From Gammaproteobacteria bacterium (GTDB lineage Bacteria; Pseudomonadota; Gammaproteobacteria; GCA-001735895): a stretch of 58,386 bases of DNA. Location of the stretch: assembly GCA_050298595.1 (NCBI GenBank), contig JBNKUM010000047.1, forward strand, positions 1 to 58,386. The letters are read 5' to 3'. The position numbers and the translations under genes were made by a program. Of this stretch, positions 3,648-8,154 are shown piece by piece. Every line of letters starts with the position of its first letter. The stretch's first letter is position 1. The notes beneath the pieces are model-generated. The model made no database searches. It was not told the DNA's origin and saw only the letters and a list, made by a program, of their open reading frames with translations.

Positions 3648-4208
3648 CTATTCATATGGCTCAACCTTGCTTGCGCTAATTGTGTAACCTGCATCTGCCA
3701 GATCGGTGGTTTGCTTGCTGGTAGTTATTACTCCAGTCACCCAGACCACATCGTATAATTTACGAATTGCCGCACCTTTCTTATCCTGCGTTGTTACAAA
3801 CACAGTCTGATTGGCTGGCGGCGGTGGCACATGGATACAGGCACCGAAATAAGGTACCAGCAAAAATTCTGGCGTTTTCTGACCATCGGTTTCCAACGGA
3901 ATAACATAGCCAGGGAGTTTAATAAGCTTGCCATTCAACTCGGTATTTAGCGGTGAGCTTTTCAACATCGCATCCATCTTTTTCATCATTTCCCTTACTA
4001 CTGGATCATCGTCAGACAGATCTGCGATATTATATTTTTTCTGATACTCCTCCACCAGATCATCTGGGTTATAACCCTTTGGCATCAGGTCAGTCCATTC
4101 CAGCTCCTGAGCTGTTTCTGCTGCTTCAGCAGCATTCACCATCAGACCCAGCACTAAAACCATAGTCAGTGCAAAAACAAATACACTTATATTTTTCATC
4201 ATTTTCAC
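3648..4208 (-). CDS. DUF3299 family exported protein (zrg-type operon)
   Basis: Signal peptide; LEWTDLMP and EFLLVPYFGACIHVPPPPANQ motifs. Confidence 0.88.
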   Translation of the reverse strand: MKMMKNISVFVFALTMVLVLGLMVNAAEAAETAQELEWTDLMPKGYNPDDLVEEYQKKYNIADLSDDDPVVREMMKKMDAMLKSSPLNTELNGKLIKLPGYVIPLETDGQKTPEFLLVPYFGACIHVPPPPANQTVFVTTQDKKGAAIRKLYDVVWVTGVITTSKQTTDLADAGYTISASKVEPYE

Positions 4209-4213
4209 CTGAA

Positions 4214-5473
4214 TTAAATCCTGATGGTCATGCCATCAGCCAGTGAGTATCGATATGCCCGATAGGCTGGAATCAAGCCAACAAGCAAACCCGCACAAAT
4301 TGCTGCCACCAGTAACATCAGCTCGTGCGCTGTCGGGGGATGGATGGGCAAATAAAGTCCCAGCTGTGATTGAATAATGGGCTGGGCTATCAACTGAATA
4401 GCATACAGCGCTGCAACCCCGAGCACTGAGGCAATCATCATAACAGCACCTGCTTCGCCGACAAATAATACAAATATGTGCCAGGGCCGTGCTCCTACTG
4501 ATCGTAACACCGCCATCTCTCGACGACGTTCATTCAGGCTGGTGAGTATCGCGGTTGCCATTCCGCTAATTCCTACCAGAACCACCAGTACCGAGATAGC
4601 AAGCAAGGCTTGCTGGGCTATCGCCATGGTGTCCCACAATTCCTGCAATGCTACGCCGGGCAAGGTCGCCAATAGCGGCTCCTCTGGGTACTCATTGATA
4701 AATCGCTGCACACGAAAAGCCGCTATACGTGATTTTAACCCCACCAATACCGCAGTAATAGTTTTGGGTTGCAGATCCATCTGGCGTGCTTTTTCGGCAT
4801 CGATATTGCGGCCAGGCTTAGGCGCACCGTTTTCCCATCCAGCATGGATTGCTTCTATAGCCTGCAGGCTAACATGCACCGTTCGGTCAAACGGAGTGCC
4901 AGACTTTTTCAGGATACCAACCACTGTAAATGGTTTGTCTTTATGCTCCACAAAACTGACCTCTCCAGTCCCATGAGCCAGTACAATTTTTTCGCCCGTT
5001 TTGTAACCCAGTTCTTTGGCAACATCTGCTCCAATGACAGCATCGTAAACATCGTCAAACGGCACACCATCAGAAAACTCAATAGCCTTGTCACCTGCAT
5101 AATGATAGCGCTTAAAATAATCTGTCGTTGTGCCCAACACACGAAATCCATGGTGCGAATCACCCAACGACAGAGGTACCGTCCAGGCAACTAATTTTTG
5201 TTTTTTAATGTCCTGATAACTTTCCCAGGACACATTATTGGTTGGATTACCTATGCGGAAAATAGAATACAGTAACAACTGTACCGGACCGCTACGTGCG
5301 CCGACAATCAGGTCGGTTCCAGAAATGGTGTTGGTAAAACTCTCGCGCGCATCATTACGCAGTCGTTCTACACCGAGCAGTAGCATAATGCTTAATGCAA
5401 TAGAAAATATCGTTAGTGCAATAGTGAATTTGCGATTCAAAATACTTTTAAGGGCCAGAGTGAGTATATACAT
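4214..5473 (-). CDS. ABC transporter permease, MacB/FtsX type (zrg-type operon)
   Basis: N-terminal TM, large periplasmic domain, GTDLIVGARSG, LNERRREMAVLRSVGA and three C-terminal TMs. Confidence 0.92.
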   Translation of the reverse strand: MYILTLALKSILNRKFTIALTIFSIALSIMLLLGVERLRNDARESFTNTISGTDLIVGARSGPVQLLLYSIFRIGNPTNNVSWESYQDIKKQKLVAWTVPLSLGDSHHGFRVLGTTTDYFKRYHYAGDKAIEFSDGVPFDDVYDAVIGADVAKELGYKTGEKIVLAHGTGEVSFVEHKDKPFTVVGILKKSGTPFDRTVHVSLQAIEAIHAGWENGAPKPGRNIDAEKARQMDLQPKTITAVLVGLKSRIAAFRVQRFINEYPEEPLLATLPGVALQELWDTMAIAQQALLAISVLVVLVGISGMATAILTSLNERRREMAVLRSVGARPWHIFVLFVGEAGAVMMIASVLGVAALYAIQLIAQPIIQSQLGLYLPIHPPTAHELMLLVAAICAGLLVGLIPAYRAYRYSLADGMTIRI

Positions 5474-5478
5474 ATTAC

Positions 5479-6189
5479 CTATTCTCCTTTTACGGCCTGA
5501 TTGATTTCAGCTAGCTGCAGGCTGCGGTCAAATTGAGCCTCTAGCGATGAATCGTGACTGACGAATACCAGTGTGGTTTTCTGCTCAGTGCACTCCTTAA
5601 TCAATAATTTCAGAAAACTACTGCGTCGGTCAGCATCCAGAGCCGAAGTTGGCTCATCGGCAATTACCAGTTCCGGACTACCGATCAGCGCCCGCGCTGC
5701 TGCCACCCGCTGCTGTTGACCGACACTCAACTCGGTAACCGGACGTTGTAACACCCCAGCAGGTAGATCGAGATGCTCCAGCAGCCGTACCGCTTCATCC
5801 CGGTGACTACTACCGCGCTGCTCGATATTACTTTTACGTCGCTGCGAAAAATGGCAGGGTAAAAGCACATTGTCCTGTACTGATAGATAGGGAATAAGAT
5901 TGAACATCTGAAAGATAAATCCAATATGTTCTGCTCGAAATCGGTCACGTTTCGCCCCACTCAAATCACTCAACTGCTGACCCAGTACGGAAACGGTACC
6001 CTGTAATGGTAACAGTACGCCACCGATCAAACTGAGCAGGGTACTTTTACCACTACCACTGGATCCTTTGATAAAAACGCGTTCACCTCTGGCGATACGC
6101 AGCTCTGGCAAGGTCAGTATGGCTGGTCCATCCTGTCGCCAACGAAAGCTAAGATTCTGTATATTGATAGCGTCTGCCTGCAACGTCAT
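5479..6189 (-). CDS. ABC transporter ATP-binding protein
   Basis: Walker A GSSGSGKS, signature LSVGQQQRV, Walker B VIADEPT, H-loop VSHD. Confidence 0.95.
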   Translation of the reverse strand: MTLQADAINIQNLSFRWRQDGPAILTLPELRIARGERVFIKGSSGSGKSTLLSLIGGVLLPLQGTVSVLGQQLSDLSGAKRDRFRAEHIGFIFQMFNLIPYLSVQDNVLLPCHFSQRRKSNIEQRGSSHRDEAVRLLEHLDLPAGVLQRPVTELSVGQQQRVAAARALIGSPELVIADEPTSALDADRRSSFLKLLIKECTEQKTTLVFVSHDSSLEAQFDRSLQLAEINQAVKGE

Positions 6190-6242: not shown

Positions 6243-6803
6243 CTACTTAAGCTTAATGATGTTGTCATCTACAGTAAGTTCAGCAGCACTTTGCCCCGCT
6301 CCTGTAATTACCTGTGCACGAAGGTGCTGAGTACCGGCAAAGCGCTCAAATAAAGACAGTGTTAATGTCTTCAGCTGCGCTGGCTGCGCGCAATCAAACT
6401 CATAGCTAGCATCGAAATCGGCATGCTCATTTTCGTGCTCATCGACGTGCTCTTCTGCATGTTGATCCGCGCTGTCGGTAATTAGTGCAGATTCCACCTG
6501 GGCATCCACCAGCACACATTTTGCAGCCGCACTAGGAGAGAATAGCAGCATACCATCGCTAAGCAATTCGGCTGCATGAGTGACCTGATCTCGCTCAGCC
6601 TGGTTATTTGCAGGATGTTCAAAACCAACCACATTCATCGCCGGTAATGACAGCTCAAGCATCATTTGATTTTTTTCAATCGCCACATTGAGCTGACCAC
6701 CACCATGTTCATGGGCTCCATGCTGACGGTGTTCTTCTGCGAATGCGACTGATGCCACAGCACAGTTCATCAACATCAATAAAGTAATTTTGGAATAACG
6801 CAT
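6243..6803 (-). CDS. zrgA: ZrgA/DUF2796 family periplasmic zinc-binding protein
   Basis: Signal peptide; HGAHEHG, PAMNVVGFEH, His/Glu-rich loop, HADFDASYEFDC. Confidence 0.88.
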   Translation of the reverse strand: MRYSKITLLMLMNCAVASVAFAEEHRQHGAHEHGGGQLNVAIEKNQMMLELSLPAMNVVGFEHPANNQAERDQVTHAAELLSDGMLLFSPSAAAKCVLVDAQVESALITDSADQHAEEHVDEHENEHADFDASYEFDCAQPAQLKTLTLSLFERFAGTQHLRAQVITGAGQSAAELTVDDNIIKLK

Positions 6804-6891
6804 TTAGTATCTCCGAATAGTAACGGCCACCTGTATCCGAAATTATAAGGATCAGGAGTGCCGAAATTTAAAAAAGTTAGATAAATAAAAC

Positions 6892-7209
6892 TTAGGAGAT
6901 ATCTGGTGGTGCGCGCGCCTCTTGTACACATACCTGAGTGGGAATATATATTATTTGAGGCAGGATTTCAGAAACTGGGACAACAGACACAACTGCAGGC
7001 AGATGATTGCCCGTTTCCGGTACCGATGAGCTGCTGAAAGCACCATACAGGCAAATCTGGCATTCACTATCCTCACCCGGCAATTCATCATGATGATGGG
7101 TATGCAGTGCAAATACCATAGCCCCCCATAGCAACAAAAAGACGAGCGATGGGCTTAACCAACGATATCGTCTGATCATTTGAGCAGTACTAAATAAGGG
7201 TATTTGCAT
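6892..7209 (-). CDS. DUF2946-like leader protein with His cluster, CxxC and C-terminal RAPP motif (putative arrest peptide)
   Basis: Hydrophobic N-terminus (start may be Met11 at 7179), then HTHHHD, CQIC and ...ARAPPDIS-stop, directly upstream of zrgA. Confidence 0.75.
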   Translation of the reverse strand: MQIPLFSTAQMIRRYRWLSPSLVFLLLWGAMVFALHTHHHDELPGEDSECQICLYGAFSSSSVPETGNHLPAVVSVVPVSEILPQIIYIPTQVCVQEARAPPDIS

Positions 7210-7518
7210 TGAATAGTGCTATTGAATTAAAGCCTTAACTTTTCGATTACCTGGTACGATGATGACTCGGGACTATAACATGACAAAGTCAATAAAAGTG
7301 AATGATAAAATTTCAACCAAACACAAAAAATACAGTACCGTCCGGATTATATCCCTCACTCTGAGATAACATTCTTAGCATTTGGTTCATAGCTTGAGTC
7401 GATTAAAACTGGGTTTCCATTGTGAAAACCGTTCAGCCTTTTTTGTTAAAATGTTTAGTACAGGCTAGCTAGTGGAGAATAACTCGGGGTATGGCAGGGT
7501 CTATAGATATAAAATTAA

Positions 7519-7548
7519 AGTCAGCCCTTTCAATTTAAAGGGCTGACT
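7519..7548 (-). terminator. Intrinsic terminator of the kinase operon
   Basis: AGTCAGCCCTTT/AAAGGGCTGACT 12-bp stem followed on the minus strand by a T-rich tract. Confidence 0.8.
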
Positions 7549-7560
7549 GTACAAATCGTA

Positions 7561-8154
7561 TTAATCGGGTATCGAAGTGGTAATAGTCACGGTTCCTGTC
7601 GGAGTATCTCCACCACCTCCGCCACCACCTCCGCCGCCTCCAGCAAGAGCAAGTACGCCAACGCCAATCAAGATCATGGTTATGGTACTCATTCCTTCTT
7701 TCTCAGGTTCCGGTGCTGCAGTTACAGAAGCCGTGCTCACATCCTTCGGAACAACCTCGTAGGCATAAGGAGAAAATTTCTGGCCCTCAAATACGCTGTT
7801 ACCTGAAACATCCTCCGCGCGAATATAAAATTCAATTTTTTTTGAAATTACAGGATCTACACTCAGTTCTGTAGAGTATGTATTGGTACCGGTTTTGAGC
7901 ATAGGCTTGGGGATATAGCCAATATCATTGGCATTCTTATAGTAAAGAGTAACATTCGCTACACCCTTATTATCGATAACCTCTACGCTAAAGGTCTTTA
8001 CGCCTTCGCTAATCTCTGACTTCCCAACGTCAAAACTAATAACTGGGGGTTCGATATCCGGAGCCTGTAAACTCAGGGCTTCCGCATAGGCAGCCGGGGT
8101 GGTAATCTGCAGAAAAAATATCAAGGCTAGCAGACGTGATAAGAATATTTTCAT
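7561..8154 (-). CDS. Exported protein with a beta-rich domain, C-terminal TM helix and poly-Gly tail
   Basis: Signal peptide ending AYA; TMILIGVGVLALA-G11-DTPTGTVTITTSIPD. Confidence 0.8.
   Translation of the reverse strand: MKIFLSRLLALIFFLQITTPAAYAEALSLQAPDIEPPVISFDVGKSEISEGVKTFSVEVIDNKGVANVTLYYKNANDIGYIPKPMLKTGTNTYSTELSVDPVISKKIEFYIRAEDVSGNSVFEGQKFSPYAYEVVPKDVSTASVTAAPEPEKEGMSTITMILIGVGVLALAGGGGGGGGGGGDTPTGTVTITTSIPD

Follow-up and report, generated by a model that had tools for sequence, protein, structure and literature searches.

A candidate CruR/CutF-like arrest leader with a predicted ribosome-binding-site switch ahead of a ZrgA-type zinc importer operon

Here, we describe a 105-codon open reading frame (ORF) that lies directly ahead of zrgA, in the operon of a zinc-type ABC importer from a gammaproteobacterium, and that we read as a cis-acting arrest leader of the CruR/CutF (DUF2946-like) kind. 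In this reading, which we consider probable, a ribosome stalled near the end of the leader would unmask zrgA's Shine–Dalgarno (SD) sequence, much as in SecM and CutF. This kind of switch has already been demonstrated for copper genes; what is most likely new is its target, a zinc-type importer. The analysis covers a stretch of 58,386 nucleotides (contig JBNKUM010000047.1, assembly GCA_050298595.1), referred to here as the window, and follows up a first-pass annotation that was made from its sequence alone.

Metal sensing by a nascent DUF2946 peptide has so far been demonstrated only for copper, in CruR and CutF. If our reading is confirmed, this class of regulator would extend to ZrgA-family zinc ABC importers, and about a fifth of the zrgA loci that we sampled in the same bacterial class bear such a leader. 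Confirmation would also give a testable function to ZrgD, a named gene of uncharacterised role. It would further mean that a masking strand can be encoded in the few codons after an arrest site, and such switches could then be sought with a simple sequence rule. In the laboratory, the zinc-dependent folding of a small domain can reportedly release an arrest peptide, and the leader, if confirmed, would be a natural counterpart of that observation.

The annotation had not been aware of this leader type being described for zrg operons, and our literature search agrees, having found no paper that ties a RAPP leader to them; supplementary neighbour lists might name DUF2796/ZrgA. Zinc is not mentioned in the available portions of the text of the CruR (PMC9426467), CutF and PMC12992588 papers.

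The operon and its leader

The genes following the leader had been called a zinc-uptake ABC operon, and Pfam bears this out. The gene set of a ZrgABC(E)-type zinc ABC importer is complete, with ZrgA, an ATPase, an FtsX/MacB permease and a DUF3299 protein (Table 1), the last of which is equivalent to ZrgE (PMC9817125). The NCBIfam ZrgA equivalog gives the zrgA product 141 bits, under its 185-bit cut-off. The studied members of ZrgA systems bind and import zinc and are induced by zinc limitation, according to the available text of PMC9817125 and PMC9820375. The leader is the first gene, on the same strand as zrgA, and a non-overlapping spacer of 88 nt separates the two.

Table 1. Positions of the leader, its motifs, the pairing elements and the operon genes in the window
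Feature	Position (strand)	Details
Probable extended -10 element	7272..7280 (-)	TGtTATAGT block; ~60 nt upstream of leader ATG
Leader ORF	6892..7209 (-)	105 codons + TAA (6894-6892, included); divergent DUF2946/CruR/CutF-like arrest-peptide candidate in the ZrgD position
Candidate N-terminal export signal or signal-anchor	7105..7173 (-)	RRYRW + LSPSLVFLLLWGAMVFAL; read by eye; conserved in homologues
His cluster	7087..7104 (-)	HTHHHD, H36-D41; H36, H38, H39, H40 and D41 invariant in 9/9 homologues
CxxC, candidate metal ligand	7051..7062 (-)	C50-Q-I-C53; invariant in homologues
RAPP, putative arrest motif	6904..6915 (-)	R99-P102, CGC GCA CCA CCA; invariant in homologues
Anti-SD	6895..6901 (-)	UAUCUCC in codons 103-105; +9..+15 from first base of P-site codon, by counting
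Imperfect hairpin	6824..6863 (-)	Within the 88-nt spacer; anti-SD:SD helix closes around it; in MFE and consensus fold
zrgA ribosome-binding region	6801..6814 (-)	GGAGAUA 6814-6808, AUG 6803-6801
zrgA, His-rich periplasmic metal-binding ZrgA family	6243..6803 (-)	PF10986, E 7.3e-50
ABC transporter ATPase	5479..6189 (-)	PF00005, E 2e-29
FtsX/MacB-type permease	4214..5473 (-)	PF02687, E 5e-21; PF12704, E 1e-14
DUF3299 periplasmic protein, ZrgE/PA4066 type	3648..4208 (-)	PF11736, E 4e-43

The signal-like N-terminus, the HTHHHD and CQIC motifs and the RAPP-DIS-stop ending that had been read from the sequence are all present. An n-region, RRYR, and the ~19 hydrophobic residues after it (by eye) together span residues 13-35, and the chain closes with R99APP102 followed by D-I-S and the stop codon, so that RAPP stands three residues before the end and 45 residues after CxxC. 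The RAPP motif, both cysteines, the His residues and an ARAPPxIS tail are invariant across the nine close homologues. The SD of the leader itself is not obvious on reading the sequence.

Family relationships of the leader

Kinship with leaders that carry CxxC and a RAPP tail had been proposed, and it holds at the level of two CruR hallmark motifs and their 45-residue spacing: the CruR paper, in the available part of its text (PMC9426467), takes as the mark of DUF2946 a CXXC and a RAPP with 45 residues between them, the RAPP being followed by three more residues before the chain ends. The suggested profile search against DUF2946 (PF11162) was borne out for relatives of the leader but not for the window protein itself, which has no match even at E<=10. 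Two of nine close homologues match (best E 6.6e-6, threshold E<=0.01), as do 48 of the 142 profile relatives scanned (E<=0.01). A genome search with PF11162 recovered none of the eight zrgA-linked leaders, and in the Atlas the second-nearest cluster to the leader carries a DUF2946 label (score 0.95).

A profile built from 13 zrgA-linked leaders collected 652 cluster representatives at E<=1e-3. Among the best 150 of these 652, R[AG]PP lies no more than eight residues from the end in 142, CxxC precedes it by 42-46 residues in 139, and at least two His occur in the 22 residues before CxxC in 138. It was also observed that other leaders precede porin-like outer-membrane proteins, which neither Pfam nor NCBIfam matches.

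By position and size, the window ORF corresponds to ZrgD (DUF2607, PF10795) of Vibrio cholerae and V. parahaemolyticus. Compared by description, ZrgD resembles the window leader in having ~100 aa and a single transmembrane segment (TM), and it is the first operon gene, with zrgA directly after it; the promoter construct of V. parahaemolyticus extends from VP_RS01475 to VP_RS01455. The window leader differs in that PF10795 does not match it in a search of its own genome at E<=1, and the family is matched by two of the 142 profile relatives scanned. Both of these sequences (L066 and L067) were retrieved, and both have His-rich segments and end in RAPP plus 1-3 residues; a search for homologues of the L066 leader returned none at E<=0.001.

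The likeness to ZrgD bears on a different reading, in which the product of the ORF is a genuine accessory protein, small, metal-binding and either exported or anchored in the membrane, and the predicted pairing of the ORF's tail with the zrgA SD reflects ordinary translational coupling with no metal-regulated arrest. The available text of PMC9820375 treats ZrgD as a 101-aa single-TM operon protein, although it also reports zrgD knock-outs without a growth phenotype, and the products of CruR and CutF are undetected in vivo. The His cluster and CxxC are indeed conserved at the protein level, and any ribosome reaching the stop codon would open the SD, giving coupling by unmasking without a stall. 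An accessory protein would not, however, be expected to keep RAPP or RGPP near its stop codon across the relatives counted above, since these motifs are strongly avoided in proteomes (PMC12992588, available text), or to hold CxxC at its fixed distance from them; that fixed distance indicates a constraint on a chain that is still ribosome-bound. We consider this reading rather unlikely.

Predicted pairing between the leader tail and the zrgA ribosome-binding region

The codons after RAPP had been said to contain a perfect complement of the zrgA ribosome-binding region, and TATCTCC (6901-6895) does match, as its exact reverse complement, GGAGATA (6814-6808), which sits 4 nt upstream of the zrgA ATG. 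The Ala100 codon, GCA, also pairs with the UG of the zrgA AUG and the next C. The imperfect hairpin described between the two strands is present as well, and the minus-strand fold that the first-pass annotation had recommended, from 6920 to 6790, combines the 7-bp anti-SD:SD helix and the hairpin in its minimum free energy structure (MFE) of -32.5 kcal/mol, with a z of -3.09 and one of 200 shuffles equally good. The zrgA SD is predicted, then, to be sequestered in a helix whose other strand falls under the footprint of a stalled ribosome. When +1..+15 is masked, the mean unpaired probability of the window SD rises moderately, from 0.17 to 0.38.

Proline and serine codons are intrinsically complementary to SD sequences, and tail:SD matches of this type are therefore inflated. 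Synonymous recodings of the window tail (n=1728) beat the native SD pairing in 4.7% of cases (p = 0.047), and the tail is unsurpassed in SD pairing by any of the 105 other windows from the leader and intergenic region. As a rough background, 284 pairs of same-strand neighbours from the same genome contain 13 (4.6%, the window pair included) that are as strong. On its own, the pairing in the window is suggestive but not decisive. This background is also what favours a chance origin, namely an unrelated small ORF whose Pro/Ser-rich end matches the SD. Chance is contradicted by the conservation of the ORF, its motifs and its synteny over six families, and among the 11 frames in the genome that end in R[AG]PP, the window leader is the only one with CxxC 40-50 residues upstream; we regard such an origin as very improbable indeed.

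Recurrence at other zrgA loci

The tail:SD pairing becomes convincing because it recurs in other lineages. The 300 genomes that we sampled from the same class held 32 other zrgA loci from 30 genomes; the count leaves out a zrgA fragment lying at the beginning of a contig (G109:C131:2-196) and treats two G147 fragments as one locus. A leader with an R[AG]PP tail is found directly upstream in seven of these 32 loci (7/30 genomes, six families). Within the genus of the window, the leader is followed by zrgA in all six loci. A wider locus search returned only four loci, all from same-genus metagenome-assembled genomes (MAGs) already in the set, and an order-level search was positive in 6 of 79 genomes, again all from the same genus. 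Two weak matches (L007 and L008) contain no RAPP-tailed ORF and were dropped.

The conservation of RAPP (9/9 close homologues) and, in the leader–zrgA intervals, of the pairing was upheld, as the annotation had proposed to check, while covariation within the genus was uninformative because the helix is nearly invariant. In the MFE of the same-genus loci, the pairing is kept in five of six (L001-L005) and is missing from L006, which has a 252-nt spacer. The consensus fold of five same-genus sequences keeps all seven helix pairs in 5/5, one of them as G.U, with zero double compensatory changes; in the hairpin, two pairs have changed on both sides among the five sequences. The independent zrgA-linked leaders show pairing between tail and ribosome-binding site (RBS) in 5-6 of 7 cases, with different sequences each time. 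In the MFE, L021, L023, L024, L031 and L038 show the tail paired with the RBS, and L022, atypically, shows it paired with the start codon; in L036, the pairing is missing. The leaders of L031 and L036 lack the second Cys.

When eight lineages are combined, the synonymous-recoding test gives a Fisher p of 0.0028, and the tail is the best of ~100 windows in four of the eight. Cognate tails, tested against their own spacer and RBS, reach a mean rank of 6.95 of 22, a value attained by 0 of 20000 permutations; we give this comparison little weight because the GC of the foreign tails acts as a confounder and because the test spans the whole spacer. With +1..+15 masked, the SD has a higher mean unpaired probability in 10 of 13 loci, the gain being at least 0.2 in eight of them, whereas SD accessibility falls in L021 and L022.

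The proposed switch

Transcription of the operon would start from a promoter near 7280. Ribosomes translating the leader would then stall with R-A-P101 in the P site; by analogy with the ApdA/ApdP structures and the CruR toeprint, from which the assignment is borrowed, the P site is expected to hold Pro101 (6909-6907) and the A site Pro102 (6906-6904). The mRNA channel of the stalled ribosome would cover ~+1..+15, including UAUCUCC at +9..+15. With the anti-SD covered, the zrgA SD and part of its AUG would therefore be free and zrgA would be translated, the ABC importer genes being translated presumably by coupling to zrgA. If the arrest is short, or is released by metal or by pulling force, the ribosome would terminate 7 nt later, the tail would re-pair with the SD across the hairpin-containing 88-nt spacer, and initiation at zrgA would be shut off. 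What sets the duration of the arrest would be the His cluster together with CxxC, exported and placed 45 residues ahead of RAPP. In a CruR-like logic, the metal-free chain would stall for long and the operon would be ON, and binding of metal would bring release and the OFF state; this sign is likely because the target is an importer.

The arrest itself has precedents. In CruR, RAPP is required for downstream expression (PMC9426467, available text), and the arrest has been observed in the PURE system. More generally, RAPP/RGPP arrests translation in many contexts, according to the available text of PMC12992588. The closest relative at the motif level is CruR (Bp2923), the upstream ORF of the bfrG operon of Bordetella pertussis. 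Like the window leader, it opens an operon for metal uptake; it begins with an export-type N-terminus, to which that of the window leader looks similar by eye, it shares with the window leader the series CXXC, 45 residues, RAPP, three residues and stop, and its uptake logic, in which the stall means ON, is expected to be the same for the window leader. CruR has 145 aa and is recognised by PF11162, whereas the window leader has 105 aa, is unrecognised and carries the extra His cluster. The CruR target is a TonB-dependent transporter, with copper as the signal, in contrast to the ZrgA ABC importer in the window.

The two also differ in output, since CruR, in the available account, works through Rho-dependent termination over a 162-bp GC-rich spacer, in place of the 88-nt AT-rich spacer and tail:SD helix in the window. 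A reading modelled on CruR would have the stall block Rho loading or polarity; release would expose the spacer, Rho would terminate before zrgA and the tail:SD helix would be secondary. The Rho mechanism has been demonstrated for this closest motif-level relative (PMC9426467, available text), and since the 5' end of zrgA, if left untranslated, would offer Rho a substrate, the Rho and SD mechanisms could operate together. The window spacer does not resemble the long, C-rich and poorly structured rut spacer of the CruR type: its 88 nt compare with 162 bp in B. pertussis, it is AT-rich (GC 34%) with C 16 and G 14 rather than C-rich and G-poor, and it is mostly paired in the MFE. Nor would a pure Rho model predict tail:RBS complementarity that recurs across lineages, and we judge it improbable as the main output.

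For the SD-unmasking output that we prefer, the nearest parallel is CutF, the exported DUF2946-family leader of cutFOG in Rhodobacter capsulatus, which acts only in cis. According to published work, ribosomes that stall on the Pro motif at the CutF C-terminus open up an mRNA fold, which otherwise keeps the RBS of the following gene, cutO, inaccessible. CutF, which is EF-P-dependent, carries CxxxC and PPP motifs, where the window leader has CxxC and RAPP, and the masking strand in the window, unlike that of CutF, lies in the leader's own last codons. Copper induces the CutF stall and turns a detoxifying oxidase ON; since the window target is an importer, its sign of control is probably the opposite. 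SecM-secA and ApdA/ApdP resemble the proposal for the window in that an exported leader arrests at R-A-(G/P)-P close to its C-terminus and the RBS of the next gene is exposed, but these peptides monitor the export machinery, regulate sec/yidC genes and lack a metal-ligand motif set at a constant distance from the arrest point.

The signal, Zur and the promoter region

The metal sensed is most likely zinc. The same switch could instead respond to copper or another thiophilic metal, or the stall could report Sec/SRP export load, and we hold these options together to be unlikely. Both characterised family members sense copper through Cys motifs, CxxC is a classic Cu(I) site and the RAPP arrest peptides ApdA/ApdP monitor export; the genes regulated here, however, encode a ZrgA-type importer, and the studied members of that type bind zinc, import it and respond to its limitation, as noted above from partial sources. 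The CutF authors, for their part, hold that not all members are copper-specific, and suggest nickel or cobalt for His-only relatives. A His cluster beside CxxC, present in 138 of the best 150 profile relatives, fits a Cys2His2-type zinc site without proving one.

Vibrio zrg operons have a Zur box, and none was found at the window, in keeping with the earlier remark that no full box was visible upstream. The core of the V. parahaemolyticus Zur site has no match with <=3 mismatches across the whole window, and TGTTATNNTATAACA has no match in 7210-7560; in both cases, a more divergent box is possible. Zur is absent among the two Fur-family genes of the genome (assembly 98.6% complete), which encode one Fur and one Irr/PerR-like protein, and the region upstream of znuA (C85) has no clear Zur box by eye. 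Palindromes of the form TGTTAT-N3/4/5-ATAACA were considered as Zur boxes in the genome; there are many matches, and their sole cluster, on contig C58, was dropped because its neighbours (TRAP-transporter, enoyl-CoA hydratase, SDR and MarR-like ORFs) are not zinc-related.

A bolder version of our reading would make the leader a natural zinc-sensing arrest peptide, in which the nascent His/CxxC region binds zinc, frees the RAPP stall and closes the zrgA RBS, and would apply the same to Vibrio zrgD and to the leaders before porin-like outer-membrane proteins, with the leader replacing Zur here. We offer this as a tentative and somewhat doubtful extension.

Upstream of the leader, the TGtTATAGT block is probably, judging from its sequence, the extended -10 promoter element of the operon. 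It alone is kept in all six same-genus upstream regions, with the invariant pattern T..TC.TG.TAT..T. A terminator-like hairpin follows the gene upstream of the leader, and a consensus scan picks out a weaker promoter-like site at 7286-7259.

Leader peptide and operon layout

The minus strand of the window carries a five-gene unit that includes the leader ORF upstream of zrgA (see table). Reading this ORF bore out the first-pass annotation, which had listed a signal-like N-terminus, HTHHHD, CQIC and a terminal RAPP-DIS-stop; the order is RRYR and a 19-residue hydrophobic stretch, HTHHHD, C50QIC53, 45 residues, R99APP102 and DIS-stop. Upstream of the leader, the six same-genus loci share just one conserved stretch, TGtTATAGT, which we infer to be an extended -10 element. 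The gene upstream of the leader, 7561-8154(-), codes for a protein of 197 aa that has a signal peptide and, close to the C-terminus, a run of 11 Gly; its sole domain match, to Big_7, is very weak. Two terminator-like hairpins lie between this gene and the leader.

Coordinates of the features discussed (window positions unless a contig or locus is named)
Feature	Position	Strand	Remark
Leader ORF, 105 codons	7209-6892	-	ORF reading
Leader-zrgA spacer, 88 nt	between 6892 and 6803	-	ORF positions
zrgA	6803-6243	-	PF10986, E 7e-50
ABC ATPase	6189-5479	-	gene 3' of zrgA
FtsX/MacB-type permease	5473-4214	-	gene 3' of ABC ATPase
DUF3299 protein	4208-3648	-	last gene of unit
Terminator-like hairpin	7548-7519	-	3' of upstream gene
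Second terminator-like hairpin	7430-7412	-	between upstream gene and leader
TGtTATAGT block	7280-7272	-	conserved upstream of leader
Fur-family gene, own genome (G000)	C53:23339-23701	-
Fur-family gene, own genome (G000)	C83:2946-3377	+
DUF2607-matching leader	L066:1489-1767	-
DUF2607-matching leader	L067:1483-1782	+

Family membership and occurrence

The window leader matches no Pfam or NCBIfam model. It has eight homologues among database proteins (50-99% identity), and in the nine-sequence alignment ARAPP, as had been anticipated for orthologous leaders, is invariant, together with I104, S105, C50, C53 and the His residues. The proposed link to DUF2946 stood in part: the model misses the window protein but matches two of the nine aligned sequences and 48 of 142 scanned profile relatives. 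The CruR paper defines DUF2946 proteins by CXXC and RAPP set 45 residues apart, RAPP lying three residues short of the C-terminus, together with an export signal and first position in metal operons (PMC9426467). The window ORF agrees exactly with the spacing, the RAPP position and the place in the operon, and its N-terminus, read by eye, is of a putative export type.

A profile built from 13 zrgA-linked leaders retrieved 652 cluster representatives at E<=1e-3. Among the best 150 of these, 142 have a terminal R[AG]PP with no more than eight residues after it, 139 have CxxC 42-46 residues before R[AG]PP and 138 have at least two His shortly before CxxC; the Pfam scan, covering 142 of the 150, also found DUF2607 in two. 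By these motif counts and domain matches, the leader is a member of a His-rich fringe of the DUF2946 superfamily, mostly missed by the Pfam model. A PF11162 search of 300 genomes recovered no zrgA-linked leader.

The leader occurs in 6/14 genomes of the genus (own genome counted), each time before zrgA; it was not found in other genera of the order, the matches in 6 of 79 order genomes all belonging to this genus. Of 300 genomes drawn from across the class, 31 contain PF10986. When 32 other zrgA loci were fetched and checked for upstream leaders, seven, from seven genomes and six families, had an R[AG]PP-tailed leader whose end lies 53-121 nt upstream of zrgA, with CxxC 42-45 residues before R[AG]PP in five. 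The leaders of two such loci, L031 and L036, keep RAPP and the first Cys and have lost the second (CELL, CQLD); they are perhaps degenerate sensors, or sensors that employ another ligand set.

Predicted pairing of the leader tail with the zrgA ribosome-binding site

Both the complementarity and the intervening hairpin noted previously were confirmed: TATCTCC (6901-6895) in the leader tail is perfectly complementary to GGAGATA (6814-6808), the SD 4 nt 5' of the zrgA ATG, and the hairpin spans 6863-6824(-). The MFE structure of 6920-6790(-) (-32.5 kcal/mol, z -3.09) forms the 7-bp tail:SD helix and the hairpin, with a further 3 bp joining the Ala100 codon to U-G-C in the start region.

In the consensus fold from five same-genus sequences, 7/7 tail:SD pairs are kept, one as G.U, and none shows a double compensatory change, so this fold is uninformative on covariation; in the internal hairpin, two pairs changed on both sides. 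Distant loci provide the informative evidence: in the predicted MFE structures of L021, L023, L024, L031 and L038 the tail pairs with the zrgA RBS through a different sequence each time, for example UCCUGA with UCAGGA, or a 10-bp helix of CUCCUUCAGC with GCUGGAGGAG. In L022 the start codon pairs with the last leader codon and stop, and tail:RBS pairing is absent from the MFE structures of L036 and same-genus L006.

The L006 (G010:C59) spacer is 252 nt long, against 84-91 nt in its relatives, and contains several strong hairpins, resembling an inserted structured element; its SD lies in the loop of a local hairpin. Judged by eye, the spacer hairpins in L024 and L031 resemble terminators, with U-rich runs after them, and in some lineages SD masking and transcription attenuation may act together.

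Ranked against all synonymous recodings, the native tails of eight lineages scored 0.047, 0.34, 0.59, 0.12, 0.006, 0.12, 0.58 and 0.029 (combined Fisher p = 0.0028), and the tail was the top pairing among ~100 windows in 4/8 lineages. Among 284 crude neighbour pairs from the own genome, 13 are as strong as the window pair, which is therefore only suggestive as a single case. Masking +1..+15, the footprint of a RAPP-stalled ribosome, raised the mean unpaired probability of the SD from 0.17 to 0.38 in the window and by at least 0.2 in 8/13 loci, and lowered it in L021 and L022.

The anti-SD lies at +9..+15 when the first base of the Pro101 codon is numbered +1; we take this stretch to fall within the ribosome's mRNA channel, so a stalled ribosome would cover it and free the zrgA SD; termination would allow the helix to re-form. 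For an importer, a metal-free chain would give a long stall and turn the operon ON. The switch, here predicted from sequence, would follow the SD-unmasking logic reported for CutF-cutO and SecM-secA (bioRxiv 2025.02.05.636593; PMC9973294). The leader could instead act purely through a CruR-like Rho mechanism, against which counts the short, AT-rich, not C-rich leader-zrgA spacer.

Probable sensed metal

We infer zinc as the sensed metal because of the ZrgA context, the conserved His cluster beside CxxC and the lack of a Zur box or Zur gene. No match to the V. parahaemolyticus Zur site core within three mismatches was found anywhere in the window, consistent with the earlier failure to see a full Zur box upstream. 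Only two Fur-family genes were found in the own genome, one for a Fur that passes the equivalog cut-off, the other for an Irr/PerR-like protein and adjoining a cytochrome-c-peroxidase-like ORF; no Zur gene was found in this assembly (98.6% complete), despite the presence of znuABC (C85:112000-114615). Copper is still a live alternative to zinc, since both studied relatives of the leader sense Cu.

Three clustered TGTTATA-N3-TATAACA-type palindromes at C58:11792-17570 of the own genome, among TRAP-transporter, enoyl-CoA hydratase, SDR and MarR-like ORFs, were rejected as Zur sites and probably form the operator for some unrelated regulator.

Relation to known leaders and ZrgD

Published texts already describe, as a class, small RAPP/RGPP-tailed ORFs that lie upstream of metal genes, with TonB receptors, PCuAC, PepSY genes, YcnI, RND efflux components and HupE/UreJ as downstream neighbours, and SD unmasking by a stalled DUF2946 leader has been reported. 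The main texts searched do not mention zinc, ZrgA/DUF2796, DUF3299, DUF2607 or ZrgD in this connection, in agreement with the first pass, which knew of no such description for zrg-type zinc operons. The window leader would extend the class to zinc-type ABC importers, to an anti-SD encoded in post-arrest codons and to a functional hypothesis for ZrgD.

The V. parahaemolyticus zrg operon is described as transcribed from VP_RS01475 to VP_RS01455, with zrgD, annotated 'DUF2607 domain-containing protein', as its first gene directly 5' of zrgA (PMC9817125), the same position as that of the window leader. V. cholerae ZrgD is described as a 101-aa, single-TM protein with no assigned function and no knock-out phenotype (PMC9820375). 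PF10795 matches occurred in only 2 of 301 genomes searched, and each of the two ORFs (L066, 92 aa; L067, 99 aa) contains His-rich segments and closes with RAPP followed by 1-3 residues. Position and design thus make the window leader a probable ZrgD equivalent, and Vibrio ZrgD itself may end in RAPP; DUF2607 and DUF2946 appear to be partial views of a single superfamily.

Outside zrg loci, the ORF downstream of most His/CxxC/RAPP leaders encodes an outer-membrane porin-like protein (L050, L054, L055, L057, L058, L059, L062; L066:253-1443(-); L067:1980-3191(+)). No copy, including the sole complete one (396 aa, L066), has a Pfam or NCBIfam match. The proteins share the motifs NPAxSLIL... and GRFxSGIGYLNxxHxHxWDF, some with His-rich inserts, and may represent a metal-related outer-membrane family, as yet uncharacterised, that is controlled by leaders of this kind. 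Several non-zrg leaders likewise have tails that, by eye, are complementary to the RBS, in L056 and L062, for instance, over 11 bp.
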